Assembly (NCBI GenBank): GCA_963829245.1
Contig: CAWHIM010000042.1
Location: forward strand, 2,703 to 66,702
DNA: 64,000 nt
Origin: an uncultured bacterium
Lineage (GTDB): Bacteria > Desulfobacterota > Deferrimicrobia > Deferrimicrobiales > Deferrimicrobiaceae
Reading direction: 5' to 3'
Positions within the stretch are counted from its first letter, which is position 1. Each line of letters opens with the position of its first letter. Shown piece after piece: positions 12,053 through 49,344 of the stretch. A program made the position numbers and the translations under genes. Under the pieces are notes generated by a model. That model had not been told where the DNA came from, did no database searches, and saw only the letters and a list, made by a program, of their open reading frames with translations.

Positions 12053-12090
12053 GCGGCAATCTGAATGTCTTGATCATGCCGCAGGCCGGT

Positions 12091-14038: not shown

Positions 14039-14266
14039 ATGCCGACCTACGCATACCTGTGCCGCGCCTGCGGCCGTCCGTTCGAGATGCGGATGTCCAT
14101 CCGGGAGAAAGAACGTGGAAGCCCCGCTGTCCGGTGTGCGGCAGCGCGAAGGTGGAGCAGCAGCTCTTCGGCTTCTCCTTCGGTGGGGCGGGGGCGGAGC
14201 ACCCGCCCCGGGCGGGTGATGCCCCCCCGGCCGCGGCGGTCGCTGCGGGTGAAAAGCCGGTGGTGA
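14039..14266 (+). CDS. FmdB-family zinc-ribbon protein (frameshifted, end uncertain)
   Basis: MPTYAYLCRACGRPFEMRMSIREKE, then in the +1 frame ..CPVCGSAKVEQQLFGFSFGG; two CxxC knuckles typical of the FmdB zinc ribbon. Confidence 0.5.
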   Translation: MPTYAYLCRACGRPFEMRMSIREKERGSPAVRCAAARRWSSSSSASPSVGRGRSTRPGRVMPPRPRRSLRVKSRW

Positions 14267-14305
14267 GGACGGCGGATCCCGGATGGATGGGGGGTAAGGC
14301 GGTTC

Positions 14306-16168
14306 ATGCACAAATACACGTTCTTTTCCGGCAAGGGCGGGGTGGGAAAAACCACCCTTGCGGCGGCCACGGCCGTGCGCACGGCGCAGGCGGGGAAACG
14401 GACCCTGATCGTCTCCACGGACCCGGCCAGCAACCTGGCCGACGTCTTCGAACGCCCCATCGGGCCCCGGGTCACGGAGATCGCGCCGAACCTGTTCGCA
14501 CTCGAGATCGATCCGGATACCGCCACAAAGGAGTACGGGGAGCGCGCGCTGGCGCCCTTGCGCGCCGTGCTTCCTCCGGACGCCATGAAGGTTCTCGAGG
14601 AACAGTTCCGAAGCGCCTGCACGGTCGAGATCGCCTCGTTCGACCGGTTCACCGACTTTCTCGGCGATACGGAGTTCGACCACGTGGTCTTCGACACCGC
14701 GCCCACGGGTCACACGCTCCGACTGCTCGAGCTCCCGGTGGACTGGTCCCGCCATATCGAGGAAGCCGCGCAGGGGAACGGCCAGACGTGCATCGGGCCG
14801 GTCGCCTCCCTGCAGGGGGCAAAGGCGAAATACGACCACGCCATCGCCGCGCTCCGGGACCCCGGTGAGACGGAGTTCACGCTGGTCTGCCGTCCGGAGC
14901 GGACCTCCGTGGACGAGCTGCTCCGGGCCCGCGAAGAGCTGCGGATGCTCGGGATCGGAAACTTCCGGATCGTGGTGAACGGGGTGATCCCGGTCGGGGC
15001 GGGGGGGCCGTTCGCGAACCAGTCCTCTTCCCAGCGGGAGCAGGTCCGCCGTCTTTCCGGGAAGGATCGACCGACCCTGCATCGAGGTGCCCCTCCAGGC
15101 AGGGGAAGTGAAGGGGCTTTCCGCCCTGGGGCGGTTCGCCGCCATCGCCTTCGACGGAAAGGAAGATTCCCTCCACGACGGATTCACGGGAACCCGCGCC
15201 TACACGGGGTTTTCTCCTCCGTACGCCCTGAGGAGGATGGTGACCGGCGATGGTCGGAGCAGGACGGTCGTCCTGACCGGCAAGGGAGGGGTCGGGAAAA
15301 CCGTCGCTGCATGCGCCCTGGCGGCTCGCCTCGCGCGGGAGGGGAAACGGATCCTCCTGGCGACCACCGACCCGGCGGCCCACATCGGGTCGGTCCTTTC
15401 GGCGGAGGTGTCGAGCGAAGTGCGTCCCGTTCCGGACTACCCCGGGCTCTTCGCCGTCCGGATCGACCAGAAGGAGAGCGTCGAGGCGTACAAGGCGAAG
15501 ATCCTCTCCCAGGCGGCCGCGTCCGGCCACACCGGCGAGATGCTCGCCGTGGTGAAGGAGGAGCTGGAATCCCCCTGCACGGAGGAGATGGCGGTCTTCG
15601 AGGAGTTCTCCGGCCTGGTGGAGCGGGACGATTTCGACGTTGTGGTCCTCGACACCGCACCCACGGGGCACACCTTGCGGCTTCTCGAACTGCCGTACGA
15701 CTACGCCCGGCAGGTCGAGATGATGGTGGCCGTCCGGAAGGACGACGCCGGGGCGACCGGCGCCAAGGGGAAGCTCGACGCGCTCGTCCGTCGTCTGAAG
15801 GATCCCCGGGCGACGACCTTCCTCCTCGTGATCTACCCGGAATACACCCCGATCTTCGAGGCGAAACGGGCCGCGGAAGACCTGAAGGAGTCCGGCATCG
15901 AGGTGCAGGGCGTCATCGCCAATTTTATTCTCGAAGAGGACGACTGTTCGTCTCCGTTCTCCATGTCGCGATTCCTCATGCAGCAGCACTATCTCAAGGT
16001 GGCGGAGGAGACGTTCCGGCTGCCGATCTTCAAGGTGCCCATGCTGCCGTCGGAGCCCGCGGGCAAGGATGCCCTGGACCGGGTGGGCAGGGAGTTGCTC
16101 GGGAACGGAAAACATCGCATTCGCCGTTCCGGAAGCGGCGGCGGGAATCGAAGGAGGGGGCAACATGA
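14306..16168 (+). CDS. arsA: arsenite-transporting ATPase ArsA (two P-loop halves), with frameshift(s)
   Basis: Two GKGGVGKT Walker A motifs, DTAPTGHTLRLLELP signature in both halves, metalloid-binding Cys residues. Frame changes near 15060-15090; the 3' end near 16100-16168 is ambiguous. Confidence 0.8.
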   Translation: MHKYTFFSGKGGVGKTTLAAATAVRTAQAGKRTLIVSTDPASNLADVFERPIGPRVTEIAPNLFALEIDPDTATKEYGERALAPLRAVLPPDAMKVLEEQFRSACTVEIASFDRFTDFLGDTEFDHVVFDTAPTGHTLRLLELPVDWSRHIEEAAQGNGQTCIGPVASLQGAKAKYDHAIAALRDPGETEFTLVCRPERTSVDELLRAREELRMLGIGNFRIVVNGVIPVGAGGPFANQSSSQREQVRRLSGKDRPTLHRGAPPGRGSEGAFRPGAVRRHRLRRKGRFPPRRIHGNPRLHGVFSSVRPEEDGDRRWSEQDGRPDRQGRGRENRRCMRPGGSPRAGGETDPPGDHRPGGPHRVGPFGGGVERSASRSGLPRALRRPDRPEGERRGVQGEDPLPGGRVRPHRRDARRGEGGAGIPLHGGDGGLRGVLRPGGAGRFRRCGPRHRTHGAHLAASRTAVRLRPAGRDDGGRPEGRRRGDRRQGEARRARPSSEGSPGDDLPPRDLPGIHPDLRGETGRGRPEGVRHRGAGRHRQFYSRRGRLFVSVLHVAIPHAAALSQGGGGDVPAADLQGAHAAVGARGQGCPGPGGQGVARERKTSHSPFRKRRRESKEGAT

Positions 16169-16392
16169 ACGTGAAAGAGTTCGCGGAGCAGTTCAAGGCG
16201 CTTTCGAAGGAAGATCAGATGGCCGTGATCCGGCAGATCATGCCCGGGTTCTGCGAGAGCATGATGAGCGACCCGAAGGGGATCCTGGAGATGTTCTCCC
16301 TGATGACGGAGGAGTGCGGGGAGCCGATGGCGAACATGGTCTCCATGATGGGGATGATGATGGGCCGCAAGGGCGGGGGCTGCTGCGGATGA
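16165..16392 (+). CDS. small Met-rich protein ending in GGGCCG (putative metal(loid)-binding)
   Basis: 75 aa; strong AAGGAGG RBS; Met clusters MVSMMGMMMG and C-terminal vicinal Cys pair; between arsA and acr3. Confidence 0.5.
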   Translation: MNVKEFAEQFKALSKEDQMAVIRQIMPGFCESMMSDPKGILEMFSLMTEECGEPMANMVSMMGMMMGRKGGGCCG

Positions 16393-16407
16393 GCGGTTCT
16401 CCGTCCT

Positions 16408-17487
<1,080 letters not shown>

Positions 17488-17508
17488 GGGGCAAGAAGAA
17501 AAGCCGGC

Positions 17509-18604
17509 GTGCTGTTCCGGGGCGGGGGGTGCGGGGAGACCGCGGTCGACGTCGCCTCCGCCATCCCGTCGCCCGGCGCGCAGGCCGGGGCGTGGCGGTA
17601 CCTCCTCGCCGGCGGGCTCCTTCTCGCGGCCTGGTGGGCGCTCTACCTCAGCCTGCCGCCGTTTTCGGTGGTTCACGTATTCACTGTTTCCGCTCGCTCC
17701 CGACACGCGGCTCGGCACGGCTGTCGAGTTCTTCGTCTACGATGGTCCCAAGGTCCTCCTCCTCCTTACCCTCGTGGTCTTCGGCGTGGGCATCGTGCGC
17801 TCTTACTTCACCCCGGAGCGGGCCCGGAGGATCCTCGCGGGGAAACGGGAGGCGGTTGGGAACGTGATGGCGGCCCTCCTTGGCATCGTAACGCCCTTCT
17901 GTTCCTGCTCGGCGGTGCCGCTGTTCATCGGGTTCGTCACCTCGGGCGTCCCGCTCGGCGTGACGTTCTCCTTCCTCGTGTCCGCGCCGATGGTCAACGA
18001 AATCGCGCTGGTCCTTCTCTTCGGCCTGTTCGGCTGGAAGATCGCCGCGCTCTATCTCGGGACGGGGCTCGTGATCGCGATGGTGTCCGGCTGGGTGATC
18101 GGGCGTCTCGGGATGGAGCGGTACGTCGAGGAGTGGGTCTACGCGATCCCCTCCGGCGGGGACGGCGCACCTGGGGAGGAGCGTCTCTCGTTGCGCGACC
18201 GGGTCCGGTACGGCTTCGACGCCGTCCGGGACATCGTCGGAAAGGTGTGGCCGTACGTGCTGGCCGGGATCGGGGTGGGGGCGGCGATCCACGGGTACGT
18301 GCCGGAGAACTTCATGGCCGGGATCATGGGGGCGCAGGCCTGGTGGTCGGTCCCGCTGGCGGTCCTGATCGGCATCCCGATGTATTCGAACGCCGCGGGG
18401 ATCATCCCCATCGTTCAGGCGCTTCTCGGCAAGGGGGCGGCGCTCGGCACGGTGCTCGCCTTCATGATGTCGGTGATCGGGCTCTCGTTCCCCGAGATGG
18501 TCATCCTGCGGAAGGTGCTGAAAGTCCGCCTGATCGCGACCTTCGCGGCCGTGGTGGGGATCGGAATCCTCCTCGTCGGCTACCTGTTCAACCTGGTCGT
18601 ATAA
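17509..18604 (+). CDS. arsP: ArsP (DUF318) organoarsenical efflux permease, N-terminal frameshift, start uncertain
   Basis: Conserved TPFCSCS and MVNEIALVLLFG motifs; N-terminal helix (..WRYLLAGGLLLAAWWALYLS..) is in another frame. Confidence 0.7.
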
Positions 18605-30906: not shown

Positions 30907-31004
30907 GGTCGCCGCTGCCTTCCGTGATTTATTGAAGTGTGCCCGGGAGGGCGGCGGGATCCCGCCGCCCTCCCGGGCCGAAGCGAACTAGTCTTTGCCC
31001 CCGA

Positions 31005-32411
31005 TCAGTTTCTTCTTGCGCCACTGGCGAAGATGGTCTTGGCCAGGAGCGTGGCCTGTTCCACCGCCTTCTCGGGCGTCATGCCGCGAGCGGCGTTGGC
31101 GAACATGTTGGGGAGGACGAAGGTCGCGAAGACCTCTCCCTCCGCCGGGTTCGCCGGGCCGGGGTATCCGAGGTTGGTGCTCCATTTCTCCGCGTCTTTC
31201 AGGAGGGCGAGCTTCCCCTTGTCCTCCCCGGGGAGGGCGAAGGGATCGTTCGAGAACCAGGCGTTGTGGAGGTCCCGCATCTTCTTCGCGCCCGAAACGG
31301 CGGGATAGCCCCGGTCCCCGGACGGGATGGGGGTGTCGAAGAAGGCGGGGGAGTTGTAGAGCTCGCTCGCGTACATCGCCTGGTCGTAGTTGCCGACCAG
31401 GTCGAGAAGGAACTTCTTCGCGTTGTCGACGTTCTTCGAGTACTTCGGGACGATGTAGCAGTAGATCACGTGCTCGCAGCTGTAACTGCGTGCCGCGGGG
31501 TCCCTTCAGGGCGGGGGTGAAGTAGATGTCCTTGGCGATCTCGGGGACCTGTTTCTGCGCGGAGCGGTACGCCGAGATGGAGTTGAGGATGTAGGTCGCC
31601 CGGCCGGCGATGAGCGCCTGGTTGTTGGAAACGGCGCTCCAGGCGAACACCTCGGGGGTCATCGCTTCCTTGAACAGCCGCGCCATGTATTCCGCGGCCT
31701 CCACCGAGTCTTGGGTTGTTCAGGACCACGTTCTCCTTCGCGTCCTGTACGCTGGAGTCGTACGACCACAGCAGCGCACGGCCCGCCATGTTCGAGTCGA
31801 GTTCCTGCGACAGGCCGATGCCGAGCTGGATCCCCTGGTCCTTCTTGATCTTCCCGCCGTACGTGACCAGGTCCTCCCACGTCTCGGGCCCGCCGCCTTT
31901 CCCTGCCTTCTCCCAGAGGCTCTTCCGGTAGTTGCCGGGGTCGATCGTCCACCCCGGGACGAAGGAGTAGAACTTCTTCGTGTTCGGGTTGTAGGAGCTC
32001 CTGCGGCACAGGGGGTGCTGCTTCCCGAACTTCTTCTCGGCCTCCTTGACGACGTCGGACAAGGTCGAGCACGCTCGGCTCGAACTGCGACGGCGGCGCG
32101 ATCCACTCGATCAGGTCGTGCCCCTGGCCCGCGGCGATTTCAGCGGCGGTCCGGGATGGGATCTCCGCGAGGCCGATGTGGTCCACCGTCACGGCGATAC
32201 CGTTGGTTTCGCCCCATTTCTTCGCGAAGTTGTCGTAGAAGTCCTTGTCGAACCGGGGAACGAAGTGCGACCAGACGAGGATCTTCAGCTCCTTCGAGGC
32301 GCCTCGGGCCTGCCTCGGGATGAAGATCGTCGGAGCGACCCCCATCGTTACCGCGCCGATCCCCGCCGCCTTGATGAAATCGCGACGGGTCAGTAAACTC
32401 CGTTTTGCCAT
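31005..32411 (-). CDS. extracellular solute-binding protein (family 1) with Tat-type signal, multiple frameshifts
   Basis: MAKRSLLTRRDFIKAAGIG signal, SBP_bac_1-like blocks spread over 4 ORF fragments. Confidence 0.6.
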
Positions 32412-32593
32412 TTTCCGCTCCCCCCTTCCCCGGTGCGCGGTGCCCGCGTCGCCGGATCGTCCGGTTGGATCCCTGAAAACACGCTCCATGCAGTGTTTCC
32501 CCGATCAAACGCCAGAAATATCGTTGGGATGCGTACGGCAGAGAAATATTTAATCACCGGAGCAATGGATGGTCAAGAACCCAATAAATTATA

Positions 32594-32603
32594 AAACCGG
32601 TTT
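32594..32603. promoter_or_regulatory. perfect palindrome AAACCGGTTT in an AT-rich tract upstream of the OsmC-like gene
   Basis: Self-complementary 10-mer flanked by ATA/TAT. Confidence 0.3.
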
Positions 32604-32653
32604 ATACTTGGGATGCCCCGGATGTTCAACGCGGGAAAGGAAAGGAGAGGCCG

Positions 32654-33124
32654 ATGGGAACGATCGTGCACACGTCGCGGATCTCGATCGTGCGGGAGAA
32701 GGGGCCCACCCGGATCGCGCGGATCGAGGGATTTCCGGAGCCCGTATATTACGGGGTCCACGGGGGGATCAAGAATTTCTACAAGGTCGAGCCCGAGAAG
32801 GAGCACGCGGCCACGCTCGACCACATCGTGGGCGCCGTCTCGGCCTGAATGATGGGAACACTGGCCACGGTGCTGGCCGGCAAAAAGATTCCGACCTTCG
32901 GCGATCGCTTTCGCGCGGACGTGGAAGGGGACATCGAGGACGTGGACGGGGTGCTGCGGATCACGCGGATCCGCGTGCGGTACACATTGAAAGCGCCTGC
33001 GGGGAAAACGGCGGACGCCCGCGAGGCGATGGAGACGTATATTACCCGATGCCCGGGGGCGATGAGCGTGCGCGGGTGCATCGCCATCGAGGACACGCTG
33101 GACGTCTCGGAACTCGCGGAATAG
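32654..33124 (+). CDS. OsmC/Ohr-family peroxiredoxin-like protein with in-frame UGA at the catalytic Cys position (candidate selenoprotein)
   Basis: Two adjacent ORFs separated only by TGA at 32846-32848. Joined, ..VGAVSA[U]MMGTLATVL.. aligns to the OsmC ..AHAACFSMALSLML.. motif and the second Cys TRCPG is present. A 5-bp hairpin with GGU-containing loop lies 14 nt downstream. Confidence 0.6.
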
Positions 33125-33132
33125 GGGCGGCG

Positions 33133-33646
33133 ATGCTTATCACGCACCAAGGGGATCACCCCCCGCCTTCATCCGTCCGTGTACGTCGCGGCGGGGGCGC
33201 GGATCATCGGGGACGTTGAGATCGGGCAGGATTCGAGCGTCTGGTTCAACACGGTGATCCGGGGGGATATCCTTCCGATCCGGATCGGAAGGCGAACCAA
33301 CATCCAGGATGGCTGCATCCTGCACACCAAGGACGGGTTCCCGCTCTCGGTGGGGGACGAGGTGACCTTCGGCCACGGCGTGGCGGCCCACGGCTGCGCG
33401 ATCGGGGATCTGTGTCTCCTCGGGATCGGCTGCGTCGTCCTCGACGGAGCGGTGATCGGGAAGGGGAGCGTGATCGGCTCCGGCGCCGTGATCCCGCCTG
33501 ATACGATCATCCCGCCGCACTCGCTCGTGATGGGCGTGCCGGGAAAGGTGGTGAAGGATCTCGGGGCGGGATCCGCGGAGAAGAACCGGGTGTTTTCCGA
33601 CAGCTACGTCAGGTACGCGCTCTCGTATCTCGAGAGGGGGGAGTGA
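33133..33646 (+). CDS. gamma-carbonic-anhydrase / hexapeptide-repeat (PaaY/CaiE-like) protein, frameshift in C-run
   Basis: Left-handed beta-helix repeats, His ligands; the N-terminal 10 codons are in another frame across the homopolymer at 33158-33163. Confidence 0.7.
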
Positions 33647-34068
33647 TGGACAGGGTGCAGGAGATCTTCCAGGGGGACCGGCTGATCCAGGACTTCGGGA
33701 TGAAACTGCTCGAGGGGCGCGAAGGGTACGCGAAGGTGTCCGTGGTCGTCGAGGACCGGTTCCTGAACGCACACTCGATCGGCCACGGCGTGCTGCTGTT
33801 CGCCGTCGCGGACGCCGCCTTCGCCCTTTCGGTCAACGCGGTCGTCGACGCGGTCGGCGTGCAGTGGAGCCTGAACGTCTTCCGGGCGGCGAAGCCCGGC
33901 GAGACGGTGATCGGCGAATCCCGCATCATCCACAAGGGGCGGCAGTCGATGGTATGCGAGCTCACCGTGACCGCCGGCGACGGCCGGGTGCTGGCGAAGG
34001 GGCAGTCCACCGCGCTGCCGGTATCGCGCGAGGCGTTCGCCGCCGGCAGCGGGAAGAAGGGCGGATGA
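33643..34068 (+). CDS. PaaI-family hotdog-fold thioesterase
   Basis: 141 aa, HGG-like motif ..HSIGHGVL..; ATGA overlap with the upstream gene. Confidence 0.7.
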   Translation: MMDRVQEIFQGDRLIQDFGMKLLEGREGYAKVSVVVEDRFLNAHSIGHGVLLFAVADAAFALSVNAVVDAVGVQWSLNVFRAAKPGETVIGESRIIHKGRQSMVCELTVTAGDGRVLAKGQSTALPVSREAFAAGSGKKGG

Positions 34069-34107
34069 TCACGCCCCCGGCGCCGGTGGTTTCCGCCATG
34101 CTCCTCC

Positions 34108-35694
34108 TCAATGCACCGAAATCGGGGCCGTCTGGTGCGCCGGCCGGCGGATCAGGAACAGGAGCGGCAGGACGCACGCCATCATCACCGACAGGACGTA
34201 GAAGGCGTCGTTGAATCCCATCATCGTCGCCTGCCGGATCAGCTCCCCGTAGATCCTCCCGAGCGTGACGTTCCCCGCCATCGCCTCGGGCACGCCGCGG
34301 GACGGCAGCAGCGCCTGCCCCTTCGCGATGGCGGCTCGCAGCCCCTCGTCCATGGAGGTCAGGTGCTCCACCATGCGGCTCTGGTGGACCTGCGCGCGGT
34401 GGGCGAACATGGTGGCGGAGAAGGAAACGCCGATCGATCCGCCGAGATTCCGCAGCAGGTTGTAGATGGAGGTCGCGTTTCCCATCTGAGGCTTCGGGAT
34501 CGAGGAGAGGGTGAGCGTCGTCAAGGGGATGAAAAGGAGCCCCATCCCGATCCCGAGGTAGATCCGGGGCCAGAGCAGGGCGTTGAAGTCGGCGGTCAGG
34601 GAGAAGTTCGACATCGTCCAGGTGGCGAGGGCGCACACCGCGATTCCGAGGAAGAGCGGGTACTTCGGGTTGTGCCGCCCGATGAACCTCCCCACCAGCG
34701 GCATCACGACGAGCGTGGCGATCCCGCCGGGGGAAAGGACGAGCCCCGCGAGCGTCGCCGTGTACCCGAGAAGAAGCTGGGCGTAGAGGGGGAGCAGGAC
34801 GATGCTTCCGAGCAGGTTGAAGAAGGCGACGAACATCACGATGTTTCCGGTGGTGAACGAGATGTTTTTAAACGCCCGCAGGTCGACGACCGGGTATTCC
34901 GCGACGAACAACTCCACGATCACGAAGAGGAGAAGGGCGAGCGCCGCGACGGCCGACAGGACGAGGATGAAGTCGGAGTGGAACCAGTCTTCCCGCTGCC
35001 CCTTGTCCACCACGATCTGGAGCGCTCCGACCCAGACGGTGAGAAGGGCGATCCCCCAGACGTCCACTTTCACCCCGCCCTGCCGTTTCATGTACGGCGG
35101 GTCGTGGATGAACATCGAGACCATGAAGACGGCGAACAGCCCGATCGGGATGTTGACGTAGAAGATCCACCGCCACGAGAGGGTGTCCGTGATGTACCCG
35201 CCCATCAGGGGGCCGGCGATGGGGCCGAACATGGCGCCGATGCCGAAGATGGCCATCGCCATCCCGTGCTCCTTCGGCGGGAACGTCTCGAGCAGGATCG
35301 CCTGGGAGAGCGGCTGGAGAGCCCCGCCCCCGATTCCCTGCAGGACGCGGAAGAAGACGAGCATCCCGAGGCTCGTGGAGGAGCCGCACAGCAGGGAGGC
35401 GAAGGTGAACAGGAGGACGGAGAAGGTGAGATACCGCTTTCGCCCGAAGGTGCGGGCGAGCCACCCCGTCATCGGGATGACGACCGCGTTGGAGACGAGG
35501 TAGGACGTAAGCACCCACGCCGACTCGTCGATCCCGGACGAAAGGGACCCGCGGATGTGGTCGAGGGCGACGTTCGCGACGCTCGTGTCGATGATCTCGA
35601 TCAGCGTCGGCAGCATCACCGTGATCGCGACGATCCACTTGCTCGCGCCGATCGCGCCGACCGCGTTCCCGAACCGCCCCCCCGCCCCGTTCAT
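34108..35694 (-). CDS. MFS multidrug efflux transporter, DHA2 (EmrB/QacA) family, 14 TM
   Basis: 528 aa intact; MFS motif A G(R)xxDRxGRK-like, 14 predicted helices. Confidence 0.85.
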   Translation of the reverse strand: MNGAGGRFGNAVGAIGASKWIVAITVMLPTLIEIIDTSVANVALDHIRGSLSSGIDESAWVLTSYLVSNAVVIPMTGWLARTFGRKRYLTFSVLLFTFASLLCGSSTSLGMLVFFRVLQGIGGGALQPLSQAILLETFPPKEHGMAMAIFGIGAMFGPIAGPLMGGYITDTLSWRWIFYVNIPIGLFAVFMVSMFIHDPPYMKRQGGVKVDVWGIALLTVWVGALQIVVDKGQREDWFHSDFILVLSAVAALALLLFVIVELFVAEYPVVDLRAFKNISFTTGNIVMFVAFFNLLGSIVLLPLYAQLLLGYTATLAGLVLSPGGIATLVVMPLVGRFIGRHNPKYPLFLGIAVCALATWTMSNFSLTADFNALLWPRIYLGIGMGLLFIPLTTLTLSSIPKPQMGNATSIYNLLRNLGGSIGVSFSATMFAHRAQVHQSRMVEHLTSMDEGLRAAIAKGQALLPSRGVPEAMAGNVTLGRIYGELIRQATMMGFNDAFYVLSVMMACVLPLLFLIRRPAHQTAPISVH

Positions 35695-38193: not shown

Positions 38194-38427
38194 GGCGAAT
38201 CCGAATCAAGGCGCGTGGGATCACGGCGTCCTCCCGGGAAATGATGCCGAGTGGGCACTCCGTCGGCATCGCCCCATCGTAGGGGGACCGCCGCGCCGCT
38301 GTCAAGGGTCGGAACGTTTCGCTCAATTCGCATCACGCGCAATTCACATCCTTGATATCGCGACGCATCATTCCATAAGATGATACGATATTCACTTTAT
38401 AGACATATTGTTCATGTTCGGAGGCCG

Positions 38428-39054
38428 GCGATGGAAGACAGGGGGCTCCCCAGGCGCGAAAGGGAGAAGCTGACGCAACGGAAGGAGATGCTGTCCGCCG
38501 CGCTCGATCTGTTTTCGGAGAAGGGTTACCACAGCGTTTCCATGCAGGAGATCGCGGAGAAGGCCGAGTTCGCCGTGGGAACGCTTTACAAGTTCTTCAG
38601 GAGCAAGGAGGACCTCTACAAGGCTCTTCTCATGGAGATGGCCGAGATGTTCCATGATGCGCTCACGACCGCGATCGAGGAGCCCGATCTGGAGATCGGA
38701 AAACTGCGCAATTACGTCAAGGTCAAGGGCGAGCTTTTCCGTTCCAATGTGCCCGTGATCCGTCTCTACTATGCCGAGACCGAGGGAGCGAGCTTCGATA
38801 TCAAGGCAGGACTTGATTCCAGGATCCGGGAACGATATGGGAATTTCCTGAAAAAGCTTGCCTCCGTCTTTGAGAGCGGGATGAAAAGGAAACGGTTCCG
38901 GAGGATCGCCGACCCGTATTCCCTGGCCGTTGCCCTCGGCAGCATCACCAGCGCCTTTCTTCTTTTGTGGCTTGAAGATCCCGAACGTCATCCGTACCCG
39001 GAAGACCCGGACGCAATATTGAACATTCTCTTCAAAGGGCTGGTGGATCCGTAA
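38428..39054 (+). CDS. TetR/AcrR-family transcriptional regulator
   Basis: N-terminal HTH ..MLSAALDLFSEKGYHSVSMQEIAEKAEFAVGTLYKFF.. Confidence 0.8.
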   Translation, partial: AMEDRGLPRREREKLTQRKEMLSAALDLFSEKGYHSVSMQEIAEKAEFAVGTLYKFFRSKEDLYKALLMEMAEMFHDALTTAIEEPDLEIGKLRNYVKVKGELFRSNVPVIRLYYAETEGASFDIKAGLDSRIRERYGNFLKKLASVFESGMKRKRFRRIADPYSLAVALGSITSAFLLLWLEDPERHPYPEDPDAILNILFKGLVDP

Positions 39055-39077
39055 CCTGGACAATTCGGAGGCTTCGA

Positions 39078-40285
39078 ATGAAACGGAAGGGAATCTGTAA
39101 AGGGCCACTGGAATTCCTCGCGGTAGCAATGGTTCTGTCGGTCGGTCTTTCGACAGGCGGCTGCGGCGGCCGGGAAAAATCCCCGCCGCCTCCCCCCGTC
39201 CCGGAAGTGGCTGCGGTGACGATCCGGCCGCAGCAGGTCGTGCTGACCACCGAATTGCCGGGGCGCACGTCCGCTTACCTCGTCGCGGAAATCCGGCCGC
39301 AGGTCAACGGCATCATCCAGAAGCGGCTGTTCACTGAAGGGGCCGACGTCAAGGCCGGCCAAGTGCTCTACCAGATCGATCCGGCCCCCTTCCAGGCGGC
39401 GCTCGCCAATGCCAAGGCCGCCCTTTCCAGGGCGGAGGCCAATCTGCCGGCGGTCCGGTCGAGGGTCGAACGGTACAAGGACCTGCTTCCCGACAAGGCG
39501 GTCAGCCAGCAGGACTACGACGATGCCGCGGCCGCATTGAAGCAGGCCGAGGCCGATGTAGAGGTCGACAAGGCGGTCGTCGAGACGGCCCGCATCAATC
39601 TGGGCTACACCAAGATCACCGCGCCCATTTCCGGCCGCATCGGCAGATCCAGCGTGACGGAGGGCGCCATCGTGACGGCGTATCAGCCCGTGCCCCTGGC
39701 CACCATTCAGCAACTGGATCCCGATCTACGTGGACGTGCCCCAATCCACCGCCGAACTGCTGCGATTGAAGCGCAGCCTGGCAGACGGCCGCCTCGACGG
39801 AACGGAACGAACCAGAAGAAGGTCAAGCTCATCCTGGAAGACGGCACGGCGTATCCGCAGGAAGGGACGCTCCAGTTCCGCGACGTCACGGTGGACCCGA
39901 CGACCGGCGTCGGTCATCCTGCGGATCGTCGTTTCCGAATCCCAAGGGCGTTCTCCTGCCGGGCATGTTCGTCCGGGCGGTGGTGAAGGAAGGCGTCAAC
40001 GAGCAGGCCATCCTGATTCCCCAGCAGGCCGTGTCGCGCGATCCGAAGGGGAATCCGTTCGCCCTGGTCGTGGACGCCGGCGGAAAGGTGCAGCCGCGGA
40101 TGCTCACGCTCGATCGAGCCATCGGCGACAAATGGCTCGTCTCGTCGGGCCTTGCCGCCGGCGATCGGGTGATCGTCGAGGGACTGCAGAAAGTGCGCCC
40201 CGGCGCTGTCCGTGAAGGCCGTTCCGTTTCGAAGCCGCGGCGAAACCTGGCCGCAGACGACGCCCTGAACGCGCAGGCGCGATAG
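39078..40285 (+). CDS. RND efflux membrane fusion protein (AcrA/MexA-like lipoprotein), multiple frameshifts
   Basis: Lipobox LSTGGC, coiled-coil and beta-barrel blocks spread over >=3 frames. Confidence 0.65.
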
Positions 40286-40293
40286 AGATCGCG

Positions 40294-43200
40294 ATGCTAT
40301 CGAGATTCTTTCTGGACCGGCCGGTCTTCGCCTGGGTCATCGCCATCATCCTGATGGTGCTGGGCGGGCTGGCGATCTACAACCTGCCCATCTCCCAGTA
40401 TCCGCCGATCGCCCCGCCGTCCATCGCCATCGACTCCTTCTATCCCGGGCGCCTCGGCGGAGACGGTGGAAAACAGCGTGACCCAGATCATCGAGCAGAA
40501 GATGACCGGCTTCGACGACATGCTGTATCTCTCCGGCACGAGCGATTCGGCCGGCGCGTCCCGCATCGAGTTGACCTTCAAGCCGGGCACCGATCCGGAC
40601 CTGGCCTGGGCCAAGGTGCAGAACAAGCTGCAGCTCGCCATGGCCAGCCTGCCCGGAAGTGGTCCAGCGCTCCGGCGTCACGGTCAGCAAATCCACGCGG
40701 AATTACCTGATCATCGTGGGCCTGGTCTCGGAAGACGGCAGCATGGACGGCAACGACTTGCGGGACTACGCCCAATCCAACCTGGAGAAGGTCCTGGCGC
40801 GCGTCCCGGGCGTCGGCGAGGTCGTCGAATTTCGGCTCGCAGTATGCCATGCGCGTCTGGCTGAACCCCGACAAGCTCACCGATTACCACCTGACCGTGG
40901 ACGACGTGATCGCGGCGCTGCAGGCCTACAACGTGGAAGTCTCCGCCGGCCAGTTCGGCGGGGCGCCGGCGGTGAAGGGCCAGCGCCTGAACGCCTCCAT
41001 CATCGTCCAGAACCTGCTCAAGACTCCCGAGGAGTTCGCCGCCATTCCCGATTCGCACCAATCCGGACGGCTCCGTCGTGCGGATCAGGGACGTGGGACG
41101 GACGGAACTGGGGACCGAGTCCTACGATATCGAGGCCTTCTACAACGGCAAGCCCGACCGCCGGCCTGGCCATCCGGCAGGCGCCCGGCGCCAACGCGCT
41201 GGACACCGCCAATGCCGTCAAGAAGAAACTGGAGGAGATGAGCCGCTACTTCCCGCACGGGATGAAGGTCGTCTATCCCTACGACACCACGCCCTTCGTC
41301 CGGGTGGCCATCGACGAAGTGGTGAAGACCCTGTTCGAGGCGATCGTGCTGGTCTTCCTGGTGATGTGGCTGTTCATGGGCAACATCCGCGCCACGCTGA
41401 TTCCCGACCATCGCCGTGCCGGTGGTCCTCCTGGGCACCTTCGCCGTGCTGGGGCTGTTCGGGTTTTCCATCAACATGCTGACCATGTTCGCCATGGTGC
41501 TGGCCATCGGGCTGCTGGTGGACGACGCCATCGTGGTGGTGGAAAACGTGGAACGCATCATGGCCGAGGAAGGGCTTTCGCCGCGCGAGGCCACGGCCAA
41601 GTCCATGGACCAGATCACCAGCGCCCTGATCGGCATCGGCCTGGTGCTCTCGGCGGTCTTCGGCCCGATGGCGTTCTTCCCCGGCTCGACCGGCGTCATC
41701 TACCGCCAGTTCTCCGTCACCATCATCGCCTCCATGCTGCTGTCGGTGGTGGTGGCCTTGATCCTGACGCCGGTGCTGTGCGCGTCGCTCCTGCAAGCCG
41801 GTGCCCAAGGGACACGAGCCGGCCGAGAACGCCTTCTTCCTTTCTGCGCCCGTTCTTCCGCTGGTTCGACCGCGATCTTCTTCTGGATCCGAGACCGCTA
41901 CGTGGGATTGGTCGGACACTCGCTGGCCAAGGAAACTGCGCTACCTGGTCGTCTATGTTCTGCTCGTCGGCGCGGTCGGCTTCCTGTTCTTGCGGCTGCC
42001 CACGCGCCTATCTCCCGGACGAGGACCAAGGGATCCTTCTCTGCCCAGATCCTCATGCCGACCGGCACCACGCTGGAGCAGACCCAGGCGGTCGCGGACG
42101 AGGTCCAGCGCTATTTCCAGGAGGACGAAAAAGAGGCGGTCGAATCCTGCCTGACGATCTCCGGCATCGGCTTCTCCGGGACGAGCGCAGAACAACGGCA
42201 TGGTGTTCGTCAAGTTGAAGGATTGGAAGCTGCGCGATCGGCCGGATCTGAAGGCACAGGCCGTTGCCGGCCGGGCCATGGGGGCGTTTTCCAAGTATCC
42301 GCAACGCCATGGTCTTCGCCTTCCCGCCGCCCGCCGTCGTCGAGTTGGGCAACGCCCGGGGCGTCGATTTCCAGTTGATGGACCGCGGCGGCCTCGGTCA
42401 CGCGGCCCTGATGAACGCCCGCAACCAACTTCTCGGCATGGCGGCGCAGGACCCGCGGTTGGCGAACGTCCGGCCCAACGGCATGGAAGACGTGCCCGAA
42501 TACCGCGTCGACGTGGACTGGGAGAAGGCGGGCGCCCTCGGAGTGCCCATCACCTCCATCCACGACACGATCTCGGCGGCCTTCGGCAGCGCCTACGTCA
42601 ACGACTTCATCCAGGCCGGGCGCGTCAAGCGGGTGTACGTCCAGGCCGACGCCCCCTACCGCATGTTGCCGAAGGACCTGGAAAAGCTCTACGTGCGCAA
42701 CACGGCGGGCAAGATGGTGCCCTTCGCCTCGTTCGCCTCCACCCGCTGGACGACCGGTTCCCCGCGGCTGGAGCGCTTCAACGGCTTCCCGTCCATGAAC
42801 ATCTGGGGCGAGCCGGCGCCGGGCAAAAGTTCCGGCGAGGCCATGCAGGCCATGGAAGAGATCGTCGCGAAGCTGCCCCAGGGGATCGGCTACGACTGGA
42901 CCGGGCTTTCCTACCAGGAGCGGATGGCGACGGCCCAGGGACCGATCCTCTACGCCTTCTCCATCCTGGTGATCTTCCTCTGCGTGGCGGCGCTTGTACG
43001 AAAGCTGGACCATCCCCTTCGTCAACCTGTTGATGTTGCCGCTGGGGGTGTTCGGCGCCGTGCTGGCGACCACCTCGCTGCGGGATCTGCCCAACGACGT
43101 CTATTTCCAGATCGGATTCCTCACGACGCTGGGGCTTTCGACCAAGAACGCCATCCTGATCATCCAGTTCATCAAGGAACAGCTGCGGCAAGGGATGGGA

Positions 43201-43491
43201 CTGATCGAGGCCACCCTCGCGGCCGTGAAGATCCGGTTCCGCCCGGTCATCATGACCTCGCTGGCCTTCTTCTTCGGCACGCTGCCGCTGGCCATCGCCA
43301 CCGGCGCCGGCGCCGGCGCCATGAACGCCATCGGCACCGCCGTCACCGGCGGGATGCTCTCGGCCACGTTCATCGACCTGATCTTCATCCCGTTGTTCTT
43401 CGTCGTCATCTCCCGGCTGTTCGAGAAAAAGCGGCCCCGGCTCGTTCCCGCGCCATCTTCCCCTTCCACCGACGCCCCGGAGGTGAGCTGA
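40294..43491 (+). CDS. RND multidrug efflux permease (AcrB/MexB-like, HAE1), many frameshifts
   Basis: AcrB-like blocks throughout ([18 protein letters not shown].., ..[21 protein letters not shown].., C-terminal ..ISRLFEKK), fragmented into >=8 ORF pieces. Confidence 0.75.
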
Positions 43492-43493
43492 AC

Positions 43494-44924
43494 ATGAAAA
43501 GGATGAAGACGGTCCTGTGCCTTCCTCTGGGAGTGTTCCTTTGCCTGAGCGGTTGCTCCATGGCCCCGAAGTATACGAGGCCCGAAGCCCCGGTCCCCGC
43601 CGCCTGGCCGAGCGGTTCCGCATACGATAACGCACAGGCTTCGCCCGGCGCGCCGCCGGCGGCCGAGCTCACGTGGCGGGAATTCTTTACCGATGAACGG
43701 CTTCGGCGGATCATCGAGACGGCGTTGAACAACAACCGGGACCTTCGGGTCGCCGCCCTGAATATCGAAAGAGCGCGCGCGTTGTACGGCATCCAGCGGG
43801 CCGAGCTTCTTCCGACGGTCGATGCGGCCGGCAGCGGAGGCAAACAGCATGTGCCCGCCGATCTTTCGACCACCGGGGAAGCGGCGACGTTCAGCCAATA
43901 TGGCGTCAACCTTGGGGTCGCTTCCTGGGAGATCGACTTCTTCGGCCGCATCCGGAGCCTGAAAGATGCCGCGCTGCAGGAGTACCTCGCCACCGAGCAG
44001 GCCCGCAGCAGCGCGCAGATCCTTCTGGTGTCCGAAATCGCCAACGCGTATCTGACCTTTGCCGCGGACCGGGAAACCCTCAAGCTGGCCCGATCCACCC
44101 TGGATGCGCAACGGTCCTCCTTCGACATGATCCGGAGGCGTTACGACGTCGGGCTTTCGACCGAACTGGATCTTCGCCAGGCGCAGACGAGAGTGGATGC
44201 GGCCCGGGTGGATGTGGCCGTCTACTCCCGATCGGCGGCTCAGGACGAAAACGCCTTGACCCTTCTGGTCGGATCGAAGGTGCCGGCCGGGCTGCTGCCG
44301 GACGACTTGAGCCTCGTACGACCTGTCCGGGAGATTTCCCCCGGAATGTCGTCCGAGGTGCTCCTTCTTCGCCCCGACATCCTGCAGGCGGAAAATCTGC
44401 TCAAGGCCGCCAACGCCAACATCGGCGCGGCCCGCGCGGCCCTCTTCCCCCGCATTTCACTGACGGCGGCGGCCGGAACCGCCAGCAGCGAGCTGTCGGG
44501 GCTGTTCAAGCCCGGTTCGGGCGCCTGGAACTACTCGTCGCAGATCGTTTTACCGGTTTTCGACGCCCGCGCATGGTCGGCGCTGCAGGCGATCAAGGTG
44601 GAAAGGGAAATCGCCCTGGCCCAGTACGAGAAGGCCATCCAGACGGCTTTCAGGGAAGTTGCCGATTCCCTTGCGGTGCGGGGCACGGTGGACGAACAGC
44701 TGGCGGCGCAAACCTCTTTTACCGATGCCGTCGAGGAAACGTACCGTCTCTCGAATGCGCGGTACATGAAGGGAATCGACAGCTTCCTTGGCGTCCTTGA
44801 TGCGCAACGCACCCTCTATGCGGCGCAGCAGGGGCTGATCGCCGTCCGCCTGACGAAGTTCGCCAACCAGGTGAGGCTGTACGCGATATTGGGCGGAGGC
44901 GGCGGCCAGGCCGTGCCGCGATGA
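43494..44924 (+). CDS. RND efflux outer-membrane lipoprotein (NodT/OprM family)
   Basis: Lipobox LSGCS, two OEP repeats, intact 476 aa. Confidence 0.85.
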   Translation: MKRMKTVLCLPLGVFLCLSGCSMAPKYTRPEAPVPAAWPSGSAYDNAQASPGAPPAAELTWREFFTDERLRRIIETALNNNRDLRVAALNIERARALYGIQRAELLPTVDAAGSGGKQHVPADLSTTGEAATFSQYGVNLGVASWEIDFFGRIRSLKDAALQEYLATEQARSSAQILLVSEIANAYLTFAADRETLKLARSTLDAQRSSFDMIRRRYDVGLSTELDLRQAQTRVDAARVDVAVYSRSAAQDENALTLLVGSKVPAGLLPDDLSLVRPVREISPGMSSEVLLLRPDILQAENLLKAANANIGAARAALFPRISLTAAAGTASSELSGLFKPGSGAWNYSSQIVLPVFDARAWSALQAIKVEREIALAQYEKAIQTAFREVADSLAVRGTVDEQLAAQTSFTDAVEETYRLSNARYMKGIDSFLGVLDAQRTLYAAQQGLIAVRLTKFANQVRLYAILGGGGGQAVPR

Positions 44925-44936
44925 CCTTTCCGGGAT

Positions 44937-46238
44937 TTACATGTCGAATCCGTCGTTGCCCCGGCCGGTTTCCGGCACCGAGGTCTCGACGCTCAGGAGC
45001 TTCGGCCCCTGCTTGATCCGGAACTTGCCGCCGACCGTCTCCCAGATCCAGCCGGAGTAGCCGTAGCCTCCCACCGCTCTCGTCACGAAGGCGCCCCGCC
45101 AGGACTCGCCGCGGGTCTGGTTCAGGGCGATCGTGCCGAACTTCCCGAAGGTGTAGGCCGGCACCGGGTGGCAGTACGGCTTGCCCGCAAGCTCCCCGGC
45201 CGCCTCTTCCGCCTCCTTTCCCCCGAAAATGGCGGCACGTAACCCGTACTTGTGGTCCTTCGCGCGCCGGACGACTTCCTCCTTCGTGTCGAAGGGCGTG
45301 GTGAATGCCACGGGGCCGAAGACCTCCTCTCGCATTCCGAGCATGTCATCCGTTGCGTCCCGGACGATCGTGGGGTAGATCAGGTTTCCCATGATCGTCC
45401 CGCCGCAGACGACCTTCGCCCCCATCTCGGCCGCCTCCTTGAGCTGCTCCCGGATCCGGGCCACCGCGAGCATGCTCGCCACGGGGGAGATGTCGGACCG
45501 GACGTCCTCCGGGGTCCCGACCACAAGCTTGCGGACCCGCTCCTCGAATCGCGCGAGAAACTCGTCGTAGATCGAGCGGTGGACGAGAATCCGCTTGGGG
45601 GCGATGCACGTCTGGCCGGAATAGGCGAACTTCGAGGCCACGAGATCTTTCATGGCGAGTTCGAGATCCGCGTCGGGGAAAACGATGAAGGGGTCCTGCC
45701 CGGGCCCTTCAAAGACCAGTTTCTTCCCCGCCCAAGCGGAAGGCCTTCTCGTACGGGAGGATGTTGTCGTCCGAGCCGAAGGCCACCAGGGCAGAGACAT
45801 CGGGATCCTTCAACGAGCGCTTCCATGAACGCTCTTTCCTCCCTCCCGGGTGAAGCGGATGTCGTCGCCGAAAATCGGTTTGTAGATGGACTCGGTGAGG
45901 ACGGAAAGGCCGGATCCTTTCGAGGAGAACTTCACGTTCACGCGGTTTCCCACCATATAGAGGGAGGTGATCGCGGTGTTGAGCCATGAACTGCCGTTGT
46001 AGGAGAGCATGAGGGAAACGAAGGAACCCTCTCCCCCGAGGGGCCGCCTTCCTTCCAGGATCGGCCTTGCCTCGGCGAACATCTTGAGCCGGTCGATCGA
46101 GATGTTGACCTCCGCTTCGCTGTCCTTGACGGTGAATTTGAGGTCGCGGACCGCCTCCCGGACGATCCGCATCCGGTGTTTTCCAAGGCTCTCCGCAAGG
46201 TCCAGCAACTTCCGGTACCGCTCGTCGTACGGTGTCAT
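44937..46238 (-). CDS. aldehyde dehydrogenase family protein (frameshift near 45800)
   Basis: Catalytic Cys context YSGQTCIAPKRILV, Rossmann GxGxxG; AGGGAG RBS. Confidence 0.6.
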
Positions 46239-47684
46239 GAGTGTCTCCCTTCGCTTCGCGCCGCTGTGAGAACCGTTCCCGCCGAAGCCAACAGGCCGGC
46301 CGCGATGAACCCGAGATGGATCGCTTTGAAGACCCGTTCCGGGGGGATCCCGTGAGCGGACCGACCTCCGGCGACGCTGGCGAGGATCGCTCCCGCCAGG
46401 CTGACGCCCGTGGCCATCCCCAGCAGTCGCGACGTGGCGAGGACTCCCGAAGCGATGCCCTTCCGTCCCGGCGGCGCCGCCCCGAGCATCGCGGTATTGT
46501 TGGGCGTGACGAAGATCGCCATCCCCACTCCCGTCACCACCAGGGCGATCACCGTGAGATGGAGAGGGGACTCCCCGTTCATGGCGGAAAGGATGAAAAG
46601 TCCCACCGCCAGAATCGCCATGCCCATCGTGGCGGGACCACGGGAGCCGACGCGATCCGCGATCCTCCCGCTGATGGGAGCCATCACGACCATGGAAAGA
46701 AACTGTGCCGTCATGAAGATGCCCGCCTTCGCCGCCGAAAAGCCTCGTCCCTGGATGAGGTAAAAGGGGACCAGGAAGAGCACGCTTGCCATGCAGATGT
46801 AATTCACCAGGGCGCTCCCCACCGAAAAGGAGAAAAGGCGATCCCCGAAGAGGGCCAGGTGCAGCATGGGATGTTTCACGGTTTTTTCCTGCCGCAGGAA
46901 CAGGAATGCAAGAGCGGCGCTCCCGGCGAAGACGCCGAGGGTCGGCTCCGAGATCCACCCCCAGTCGTTCCCGCGACTCAATGCGACCTGCAACGCGAGA
47001 AATGCCGCGAGGAAAAGCAGGGCCCCGACCCAATCGAACGTCTCTTCCCGCGGCCGCAAGTCTTTCTCTTCGGGGATGTGCAGGAGCCCGATCGCGAAGG
47101 CAGCCACGCCGACGGGAACGTTCATGAAGAAGATCGTTCGCCATCCCCATTGGTCCGTGAGCCACCCGCCCAGGGAAGGACCCAGGGCGAGTCCGATGGA
47201 TGTCATGGCGGCCTGGAGTCCCAGCGCCTGCCCGATCCGCGAAGGGTGCACGCTTCCGATGAGGATGGCGGGCGCGTTGGAGACCACGATGGCGGCCCCG
47301 ATGCCCTGGAGGACGCGGGCGGCGATCAGCATCTCCACCGAAGGGGAGATCCCGCACAAGACGGACGCCGGGACAAAGACCACGAGCCCGGCAAGATAAA
47401 AGCGCTTATGTCCCCGGAGGTCCCCCAGACGCCCGAACGTGAGAAGCAGCGATCCCATGACCAGCAGGTAGGATCGTCGACACCCACTGGATCACCTCGA
47501 CGGGGACACGGTACCCCGCCTGGATCACGGGAAGCACGGTGTTGACCACGCTTGCGTCGAGGGCGGACATGAAGGTCCCGAGACCCACGGACAGAAGCAC
47601 CCGGATGCCGACGGCATCCGGGCCGCTATTCCGCGGCGGGTCGATTCCCCGCCGCCGTCGGCTCCATGTCTCCCGCCGGCTCAT
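46235..47684 (-). CDS. MFS transporter (frameshift near 47450)
   Basis: 12-14 TM MFS pattern; N-terminal 90 aa in another frame; ATGA overlap with marR. Confidence 0.65.
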
Positions 47685-48112
47685 GCGAGCGCCTTGCGAA
47701 GCTTGGTGAGGATCTTCAACAGGATCTCCTTCTCCAGGTCCGTCAGGGGCGAGAAGTACTTCGAAATCCTTTTTATGTGCTTCGCAAGCCTCGGCTCGAC
47801 GAACTCCTTTCCCCCTTCGGTCAGGATCACGAGCTGGCAACGCCGGTCTTTTCGGTCCCCTTCCCTCCGCAGGAGACCCTGTTTCTCCATCTTCGAGAGC
47901 ATCAGGGATACGCTTCCCTTGGTGGTGAGGAGCCGTTTATTGAGTTCCGCCTGGGTGAGGGGCCGGTCGGAGAGGAAGAGCTGTGTCAACGTATCGAATT
48001 CGGACTGTTTCAGGCCATATTCCCGAAAGAGCTCCGGAGGGTCGATCTCCCTGAAAAGAATTAGGATATTAGCCCATATCCACGCTTCAACCGCCAGTTC
48101 CCTTGTCGCCAT
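47681..48112 (-). CDS. MarR-family transcriptional regulator
   Basis: wHTH ..LTQAELNKRLLTTKGSVSLMLSKMEKQGLLRREGDRKDRR.. Confidence 0.8.
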   Translation of the reverse strand: MATRELAVEAWIWANILILFREIDPPELFREYGLKQSEFDTLTQLFLSDRPLTQAELNKRLLTTKGSVSLMLSKMEKQGLLRREGDRKDRRCQLVILTEGGKEFVEPRLAKHIKRISKYFSPLTDLEKEILLKILTKLRKALA

Positions 48113-48174
48113 AATCGTTTAAATATAAACAATAAGTTCCCCCTCGTCAAGGAAATCTTAACCCGGCTCCGCCG

Positions 48175-49344
48175 TCAGCGCTCTCCCCCGGCCTTCCAGG
48201 GCAGCGGGAGGAGCAGGGCGAGCAGGAGGCCGATCGCGGGGAGGACGTTGATCAGGTTCATTGCGGCCGGGACGCCGTACCGGTCGGCGACCGCCCCGAT
48301 CAGGGTGACGCCGACCCCGCCCGTGCCGATGGCGAACCCGGCGATGGCGCCCGAGGCCGTGGCCATCCGCTTCGGGAACAGTTCCTGGGCCATCACGATC
48401 GTGATCGAGAAGGTCGAGACGATCGTCCCGCCCAGGAGCGCGGCCGATGCGAAGACCATCCATCCCGACGATCGCAGGAACAGGAAGATCAGGGGAATCT
48501 GCAGGGCGACGGAGAAAAAGAGGAGCCGCCGGTGCCCGAACCGGTCCGCCAGCGGCCCCCCGATCACCGTGCCCACGGTGCCCGCCCCGAGGAAGAAGAA
48601 GAGGAGGGTCGCCACGAAGGCCGGGTCGCTCTCCAACTGCGCCTGGTAGAGGAAGGGGATGTAGGTGGCAAGCCCCAGCTGCGTCCAGGAACGCAGCACG
48701 ACGATCAGGATGATGAGCGACACGGCGTAGACGGGATGCTCCACGCCGCTCATCGCGCTCTTCCGCGGAGCGGAGGATGCCGATTCGATCCGTCTCCGGA
48801 TGGTGGGCATGGCGGGGAGGAGCAGGAGCGCGGCGACGCCGGCCGGCAGGAGGAGAACGGACGCCCCCGGGAGCCCGTACCTGGAGACGAGGAAGATCGC
48901 CGCCGGTGAGCCGATGGCGAACCCGAGGTTCCCACCCACGGAGAAGAAGGACATCCCCGTCGCGCGCCGCTCCGACGCGATGCAGGCGGTCGCCTTGAAC
49001 CCCTCCGGGTGGAACGCCGCGGTGCCCAGTCCCGTGATCGTGACGATCGCCATCAGCCAGCCGAAGGACGGGGAGTACGGAAGCAGCGCGATCCCGACGC
49101 CGGAGATCGCGCACCCCAGCGGCAGCAGGATCGGGAAGGGGCGCCGGTCCGTGACGTAGCCGAACAGCGGCTGGATCACGGACGAGGTGAGGTACGCCAC
49201 CATGAGAAGCGTTCCCGCGGCGGCGTACGACAGGTCGAACCGCTCCTTGAGGAACGGGAGCAGCGCCGGCAGTGCCCCCTGCGCGATGTCATTGCACATG
49301 TGCGCGAAGGAAAGGAGGAAGAGCAGGACGGCGGAGGAGTTCAC
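48175..49344 (-). CDS. MFS transporter (Fsr/fosmidomycin-resistance-like), GTG start overlapping the epmA stop
   Basis: ..LLFLLSFAHMCNDIAQGALPALLPFLK.. typical Fsr-family N-terminus; 12 TM. Confidence 0.6.
   Translation of the reverse strand: MNSSAVLLFLLSFAHMCNDIAQGALPALLPFLKERFDLSYAAAGTLLMVAYLTSSVIQPLFGYVTDRRPFPILLPLGCAISGVGIALLPYSPSFGWLMAIVTITGLGTAAFHPEGFKATACIASERRATGMSFFSVGGNLGFAIGSPAAIFLVSRYGLPGASVLLLPAGVAALLLLPAMPTIRRRIESASSAPRKSAMSGVEHPVYAVSLIILIVVLRSWTQLGLATYIPFLYQAQLESDPAFVATLLFFFLGAGTVGTVIGGPLADRFGHRRLLFFSVALQIPLIFLFLRSSGWMVFASAALLGGTIVSTFSITIVMAQELFPKRMATASGAIAGFAIGTGGVGVTLIGAVADRYGVPAAMNLINVLPAIGLLLALLLPLPWKAGGER

Follow-up and report, generated by a model that had tools for sequence, protein, structure and literature searches.

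Within the window, by which we mean the whole analysed stretch of 64,000 nucleotides, two open reading frames follow each other in the same frame and without a gap: a frame of 64 amino acids that terminates with a TGA (32654–32848) and a frame of 91 amino acids that begins directly behind this codon (32849–33124). The question raised by this locus is whether the TGA ends a small protein or is translated as selenocysteine (Sec), in which case both frames belong to a single gene. The initial annotation favoured the latter, describing the two frames as one complete OsmC/Ohr-family protein interrupted only by the TGA, and as a candidate selenoprotein. The coordinates of this proposal are right, the Pfam match spans the TGA, and the selenoprotein reading is supported by the presence of TGA in orthologs, the existence of Cys forms, a conserved hairpin, the peroxidatic position of the codon and the OsmC/Ohr fold. 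Judged from sequence, the region 32654–33124 is very probably a single gene encoding a Sec-decoding OsmC-like peroxidase, with selenium incorporation and peroxidase activity as predicted properties. The elements of the gene are the following.

32642–32650, forward strand: Shine-Dalgarno-like sequence AAGGAGAGG, 3 nt 5′ of the ATG, read directly from the DNA.
32654–33124, forward strand: coding sequence of a 156-residue OsmC/Ohr-fold protein with predicted Sec65 and stop codon TAG at 33122–33124, based on Pfam, ortholog starts and codon periodicity.
32846–32848, forward strand: UGA codon, predicted Sec at residue 65, the peroxidatic position, based on TGA in orthologs, Cys in relatives and the OsmC alignment.
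33050–33052, forward strand: TGC codon of Cys133 (TRCPG), putative resolving cysteine, based on conservation and alignment with Cys125 of E. coli OsmC.
33077–33079, forward strand: TGC codon of Cys142 (RGCIA), third conserved cysteine, based on conservation among Sec-form genes.

The N-termini of the orthologs begin at the same MG.(I/V)VHTSR motif as the coding sequence in the window, and the aaaggagag element upstream of the OsmC-like gene is kept in orthologs of the Deferrimicrobium clade. Around the UGA codon the residues read ...HIVGAVSA-U-MMGTLATVLAGK, with two ATG codons directly 3′ of the TGA (UGAAUG). The TGA-ATG-ATG arrangement might also be explained by a split gene, in which ribosomes terminate at the UGA and start again at the AUG next to it, such that polypeptides of 64 and 91 residues would assemble an OsmC-like fold without the catalytic residue. 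All public gene callers indeed give two open reading frames; the internal ATG, however, is not preceded by a Shine-Dalgarno-like sequence.

The read-through product, with Cys placed at the TGA, matches the Pfam OsmC family (PF02566) over residues 56–145 with 39.4 bits, where 27.5 is the gathering threshold. An AlphaFold2 model of a Cys homolog (P0003) that shares 67% identity with the window protein reaches a mean pLDDT of 85.7, and a Foldseek search with this model returns OsmC/Ohr or OsmC-like proteins for all of the best 50 PDB fold matches, with E. coli OsmC (PDB entry 1nye) ranking first (E = 3.9e-6, probability 1.00). At the sequence level the family is divergent, since a search of the PDB with the family profile yields no match at E ≤ 0.01. 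A weak profile alignment to E. coli OsmC (probability 33%, E = 4.5e-4), which is consistent with the modelled fold, places the UGA column on the peroxidatic Cys59 (..AAC-FSMAL..) and Cys133 on the resolving Cys125. The proposal that the stop replaces the first catalytic Cys agrees with this alignment, and the second Cys, also described as conserved in the initial annotation, is present in 99% of 154 unique Sec-form genes. Cys142 is found in 94% of the Sec-form genes and is variable among distant Cys-type relatives. Other conserved residues in the OsmC-like family include Arg9, Arg14, Arg20, Glu50 and Asp56. Thus, the protein resembles E. coli OsmC/Ohr, which are thiol-dependent organic hydroperoxide reductases (PDB entries 1nye, 1qwi, 1n2f and 1zb9), in its fold and in the paired positions 65/Cys59 and 133/Cys125. 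It differs from them in that the identity is only 12–18%, a predicted Sec takes the place of the peroxidatic Cys, and the N-terminal region carries conserved motifs of its own (HTSR, YYGVHGG and ATLDH).

A protein search reveals 1416 relatives, and most of the closest ones are proteins of 90–94 amino acids starting with MMGTLATVL, i.e., calls that begin just past the TGA. At the DNA level the picture is uniform. In a genome scan with one genome per species, TGA occupies the aligned codon in 80 of 80 loci. The proteins of 19 of these are 87–97% identical to that of the window, and their genomes are mostly labelled Candidatus Deferrimicrobium, Deferrimicrobiaceae or "Deltaproteobacteria"; the window is assigned to this clade on these grounds, and orthologs from Candidatus Deferrimicrobium-like bacteria share 91–97% identity with the window protein. 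The remaining labels include Thermoanaerobaculia/Acidobacteriota, Actinomycetota, Nitrospirota, Syntrophales, Syntrophobacteraceae, Desulfomonilia, Methylomirabilota, Desulfuromonadales and others, and the loci cover at least six phyla. A metagenome scan, which was seeded deliberately with Cys forms, shows TGA in 78 and TGC in 2 of 80 loci. TGC occurs at the UGA column in L084, L085 and L163–L168.

The conservation of the TGA bears directly on the possibility that a TGC/TGT was misread or misassembled here, or that the locus is a pseudogene. Indel errors or pseudogenes are indeed apparent nearby, for example the substrate-binding gene at 30988–32489, which is spread over at least three frames. 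The TGA, however, recurs in about 158 of 160 loci that were assembled independently and that come from many samples and phyla, and this excludes a base-call error; the C-to-A sequencing error that the initial annotation had offered as its alternative is refuted in this way. In addition, both halves of the gene are under purifying selection. Among the 154 unique genes the nucleotide entropies at the first, second and third codon positions are 0.32, 0.24 and 1.37 in the N-terminal half, and 0.67, 0.56 and 1.48 in the C-terminal half, and other in-frame stops are completely absent. The codon periodicity is alike on either side of the TGA, as is expected for one frame. The conserved TGA, the coding character of both halves in one frame and the existence of Cys relatives together exclude sequencing error and pseudogene formation, and we consider the chance that either applies here to be negligible.

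The relatives of the protein also indicate which residue belongs at this position. Of 51 full-length relatives at greater distance, 40 have Cys at the UGA column, where it forms part of a C-x-x-G-T motif; the second Cys is retained in these relatives as well. An exhaustive profile search, covering 1.84 billion cluster representatives, yields dozens of clusters that stop exactly at profile position 64 or begin at position 66. A Sec/Cys-pair criterion has been used for selenoprotein prediction (PMC1088965, methods); by their sequences, the OsmC-like gene and its Cys homologs form such a pair. These forms also bear on the split-gene explanation. The Met-Met pair follows the Cys in TGC forms as well (C-M-M-G-T), which identifies it as a residue pair of the family, not a start signal, and the break between the two frames falls exactly at the column of the catalytic Cys.

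Among the full-length relatives from the protein search, the residue at the TGA column is C in some and W in others. For one of the W proteins (P0001) the DNA contains TGA, and the gene caller had used a code in which TGA specifies Trp. Another (P0016, 60% identical; the locus L002) has a true TGG at 2458–2460 (JGI Ga0568889_0051406) with the hairpin perfectly kept, and may stem from a recent A-to-G change or a faulty assembly, or represent an inactive variant. This ortholog would fit a mechanism in which the UGA is read through as another amino acid, either Trp by a near-cognate tRNA-Trp or Cys, with the hairpin acting as a mere stimulator of read-through. Such a mechanism would also agree with the outcome of the searches for Sec machinery. 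ARAGORN detects no tRNA-Sec in the 64-kb window, which has no tRNA genes at all, or in 94 loci, and the window and ∼1.5 Mb of ortholog flanks, when scanned for motifs of SelD, SelB and Sec-type FdhA, yield none of these signatures. Likewise, tblastn with an approximate E. coli SelD query gives no match in the window and flanks. On the other hand, the single TGG stands against about 160 TGA codons, the Cys of the relatives at this column corresponds to the peroxidatic position, where a Trp would be inactive, and the neighbouring genes in the window end at TGA, which implies a standard genetic code. The distance of the hairpin from the UGA, its size and its loop G (see below) also fit bacterial SECIS elements. 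Read-through to an amino acid other than Sec is thus very unlikely. For the preferred reading, decoding as Sec, the Sec-decoding trait of the host genome is assumed.

A second selenoprotein candidate was not found in the window, where seven TGA-joined ORF pairs and a composition-filtered scan were considered. The candidates obtained in this way are adjacent genes or antisense artefacts.

Decoding of UGA as Sec in bacteria is directed by the SECIS, an RNA element. In E. coli fdhF it is a coding-region hairpin bound by SelB, whose upper stem-loop begins approximately 11–12 nt past the UGA and whose small apical loop contains a G (GU). In the window the corresponding region contains two elements.

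32861–32880, forward strand: SECIS-like upper stem-loop, with a 7-bp stem (CUGGCCA/UGGCCGG), a 6-nt loop (CGGUGC) and a conserved G at 32869.
32855–32892, forward strand: possible extended SECIS, part of the MFE fold, with a weak and tentative lower helix (32855–32858 with 32889–32892).

The hairpin GGCCA-CGGUGC-UGGCC with a GGU-containing loop, reported in the initial annotation to start 14 nt past the UGA, is present; this 5-bp core extends to a stem of 7 bp that begins 12 nt past the UGA. Similar to the fdhF SECIS, the hairpin is intragenic, with a comparable spacing from the UGA and a G in the loop. Unlike in fdhF, no bulged U is evident, the sequence is unrelated, and the stem is built of two Leu-Ala codon pairs (CUGGCC...CUGGCC); binding of SelB would be by analogy. 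The distance of 12 nt, the size of the hairpin and the loop G conform to the published description of bacterial SECIS elements (PMC1088965). No relevant Rfam family is matched, either at the gathering threshold over the whole window or with E values up to 10 over 32600–33200.

Taken by itself, the hairpin of the window is within chance. The fold of the 66-nt segment has a z-score of −0.31, and when the peptide GTLATVLAGK is re-coded synonymously with local codon usage, 12% of the variants fold equally well (p = 0.12), compared with p = 0.02 for uniform usage. The single-sequence hairpin is unremarkable because the two Leu-Ala pairs (T-L-A-x-x-L-A-G) have CTGGCC...CTGGCC as their commonest GC-rich codons, of which the GGCC is self-complementary. 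Since the single-sequence folds are within chance, the significance of the hairpin derives only from comparative data.

These data come from an alignment of 143 distinct 66-nt sequences, in which helix columns 22–28 pair with 35–41, equivalent to 32861–32867 with 32874–32880 in the window. In the upper helix 97% of the cells are paired. Double compensatory changes are observed at three pairs (C-G to U-A 13 times, G-C to C-G three times, and C-G to U-A once), while two further pairs show single changes that preserve pairing (U-G to U-A and A-U to G-U). None of 500 shuffles matches the observed pairing or covariation of the upper helix, and slid controls, with the partners moved by 1–3 columns, show only 18–53% pairing. 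The lower helix is paired in 83% of the cells; one pair covaries (G-C in 40, A-U in 25 and G-U in 18 sequences) and is unpaired in 58 sequences.

The codons that make up the arms are almost frozen at synonymous sites. Their synonymous entropy ratios are 0.10–0.43, as compared to approximately 0.7–1.0 for most other codons, and the lowest value outside the arms is 0.32 (Ser +73). At Leu +5 the ratio is 0.22, with CTG in 136 of 151 genes, and at Ala +6 it is 0.10, with GCC in 150 of 154; the equivalent values are 0.16 for Leu +9 (CTG in 134 of 145) and 0.43 for Ala +10 (GCC in 126 of 152). The frozen arm codons hold also in genes with a GC content of 42–56%. This pattern in the aligned sequences indicates that the arms are under selection at the RNA level. 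In addition, the second nucleotide of the loop is a G in 138 of 143 sequences, while the codon to which it belongs varies among Thr, Ala, Arg and Gly across lineages, and a GU dinucleotide is found inside the loop in 117 of 143 sequences. None of the Cys-form loci retains all seven pairs, and most of them have folding energies of −4.3 to −8.7 kcal/mol, versus −11.5 kcal/mol for the hairpin; one exception (L166) contains a different hairpin of −13.0 kcal/mol. A SECIS-like structure is thus conserved in orthologs, as seen from the pairing, the compensatory changes, the frozen synonymous sites and the loop G. All of these features would be left without a role if the gene were split into two polypeptides, an explanation that we regard as highly unlikely.

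The conserved structure and the position of the codon suggest how the Sec-decoding gene may operate. The UGA at 32846–32848 would be recoded to Sec by a SelB-GTP-Sec-tRNA(Sec) complex recruited by the hairpin at 32861–32880. The conservation and covariation of this hairpin are observed, and its binding to SelB is proposed from the E. coli fdhF paradigm. From the profile alignment and the fold of the Cys homolog, Sec65 is predicted to occupy the position of the peroxidatic Cys within the long central helix. By analogy to Ohr/OsmC, the selenolate of Sec65 may attack an organic hydroperoxide or H2O2 to form a selenenic acid, which could then react with Cys133 to give a selenenylsulfide. The latter might be re-reduced, as happens in Ohr/OsmC, by a dithiol such as that of thioredoxin or of a lipoylated protein.

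The initial annotation referred to the replacement of Cys by Sec in peroxiredoxin-like proteins as known; it did not mention that OsmC-like selenoproteins are themselves a listed family (PMC1088965, PMC13188914). Of the 15 selenoprotein families whose first prediction came from the Sargasso Sea metagenome, one is an "OsmC-like protein", with three sequences, assignment to COG1765 and a UxxT motif (PMC1088965; Zhang, Fomenko & Gladyshev 2005). The GOS analysis of 2008 contained 5 Sec-containing OsmC-like sequences versus 161 Cys homologs (PMC2398784), and the family is still among those "predicted with high confidence" in reviews from 2022 and 2026 (PMC9312934; PMC13188914, the latter with PF02566 and UxxT). 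The window gene shares with this family the PF02566 domain, a single Sec in place of the redox Cys, a SECIS-like hairpin directly downstream and a computational prediction based on Sec/Cys pairs. It differs in the motif, which in the window and in all orthologs is U-M-M-G-T, with the Thr at +4 instead of in a UxxT arrangement. Moreover, the published OsmC-like selenoproteins are rare and marine, with 3–5 Sec sequences, whereas the Sec form accounts for ∼98% of the loci of the window subfamily, which stem from anaerobes of soil, peat, sediment and groundwater. By description the window subfamily may stand apart from the published family; the accessions noted in its clusters differ from those of the published representatives AACY01145085, MBR72571.1 and MCS5647933.1.

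The gene is therefore of a kind that is already known, and represents a further member, perhaps of a distinct U-M-M-G-T subfamily. NCBIfam gives only a sub-threshold match (TIGR03563, 12 bits), so that no curated selenoprotein model of this resource covers the family. We see about even chances for the broader proposal of an OsmC subfamily, separate from the marine selenoprotein of 2005, that has Sec as the norm (∼98% of loci), extends over at least six phyla of bacteria from anoxic soil, peat, sediment and groundwater, carries an almost invariant SECIS, is absent from curated selenoprotein models and is deposited as hundreds of records split into two hypothetical proteins. If this proposal is true, the almost invariant SECIS would imply that gene and SECIS were passed on together horizontally, or that SelB imposes unusually tight constraints.

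The genes surrounding the OsmC-like gene provide no functional link to it. Two neighbours are given by their positions.

33179–33646: hexapeptide-repeat protein.
33643–34068: 4HBT thioesterase.

Further neighbours are an MFS efflux pump, an outer-membrane efflux protein and a TetR regulator. A promoter and terminator scan of 32400–34200 gave nothing useful. A perfect 10-bp palindrome, AAACCGGTTT (32594–32603, within 32590–32608), shares positions with a TATACT −10-like hexamer. The Deferrimicrobium-clade loci L003–L017 keep it upstream of the gene, those of other phyla do not, and a redox-responsive regulator possibly uses it as operator or promoter. In Syntrophobacteraceae-type loci (L063, L064, L069, L075, L077, L143 and L160) a tRNA-Asn(GTT) gene is located approximately 130 nt downstream of the OsmC-like gene. 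This adjacency could bear on horizontal transfer, because tRNA genes are common integration sites.

Several reading frames elsewhere in the window appear disrupted. The gene just upstream, at 30988–32489 on the reverse strand, is of the ABC substrate-binding type, and its ortholog in L006 (8352–9887, reverse strand) is an intact ORF of 511 amino acids; the window copy is either a pseudogene or affected by indel errors in the consensus. Apparent frameshifts are also present at 33133–33200, where dropping one G near 33151–33154 would give the hexapeptide/gamma-CA-like gene a canonical N-terminus (MLITHQGITPRLHPSVYVAAG), and at 16393–18604, where an ACR3-like arsenite-efflux ORF is apparently in two frames. 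The frameshifts in these three regions suggest homopolymer indel errors, as in long-read assembly. Compared with the collinear, 94% identical L006, the window contains approximately 10 kb of extra DNA at 38308–48182, with RND-efflux-like ORFs of which some are apparently frameshifted; the match to L006 resumes at 48182.

At ∼6900–18600 the window contains a cluster of ORFs that look arsenic-related, as judged by eye from their translations. It comprises an ArsR-like HTH protein (6931–7350), a methyltransferase-like ORF (8333–9199), a 4Fe-4S/NrfD-like pair (9596–11818), a CMD/AhpD-like ORF with an HCQPC motif (13386–13631), an ArsD-like ORF with CCPTGVCG (13703–14038) and the ACR3-like ORF. None of the ORFs of this cluster contains an in-frame TGA resembling Sec.

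In public records the halves of the OsmC-like gene appear separately. GenBank and IMG contain them as "hypothetical protein" or "OsmC/OhrA" fragments, e.g., MBP2668441.1 together with MBP2668440.1, MBI5576984.1 and MGB5197558.1, and the 91-residue half of the window gene falls in a cluster of 596 members at 90% identity. Some JGI calls on short contigs read the TGA as Trp, resulting in full-length proteins with a spurious W. A literature search linking Deferrimicrobium with selenocysteine or selenoprotein gave no relevant paper among those listed.

The most direct consequence of the present reading is a correction of the annotation, by which two "hypothetical proteins" would become one OsmC-like selenoprotein gene. 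It brings no conceptual change, and specialists would not be surprised, as the use of Sec for Cys in peroxidases, including OsmC-like ones, is already established bioinformatically. For little-studied anaerobes such as the Deferrimicrobia, Thermoanaerobaculia, Gaiellales-like Actinomycetota and Syntrophales, the family would provide a well-populated marker of selenium use. Furthermore, it offers a natural Sec/Cys pair within the OsmC/Ohr scaffold, with which the benefit of Sec to a peroxidase of non-thioredoxin fold may be tested.
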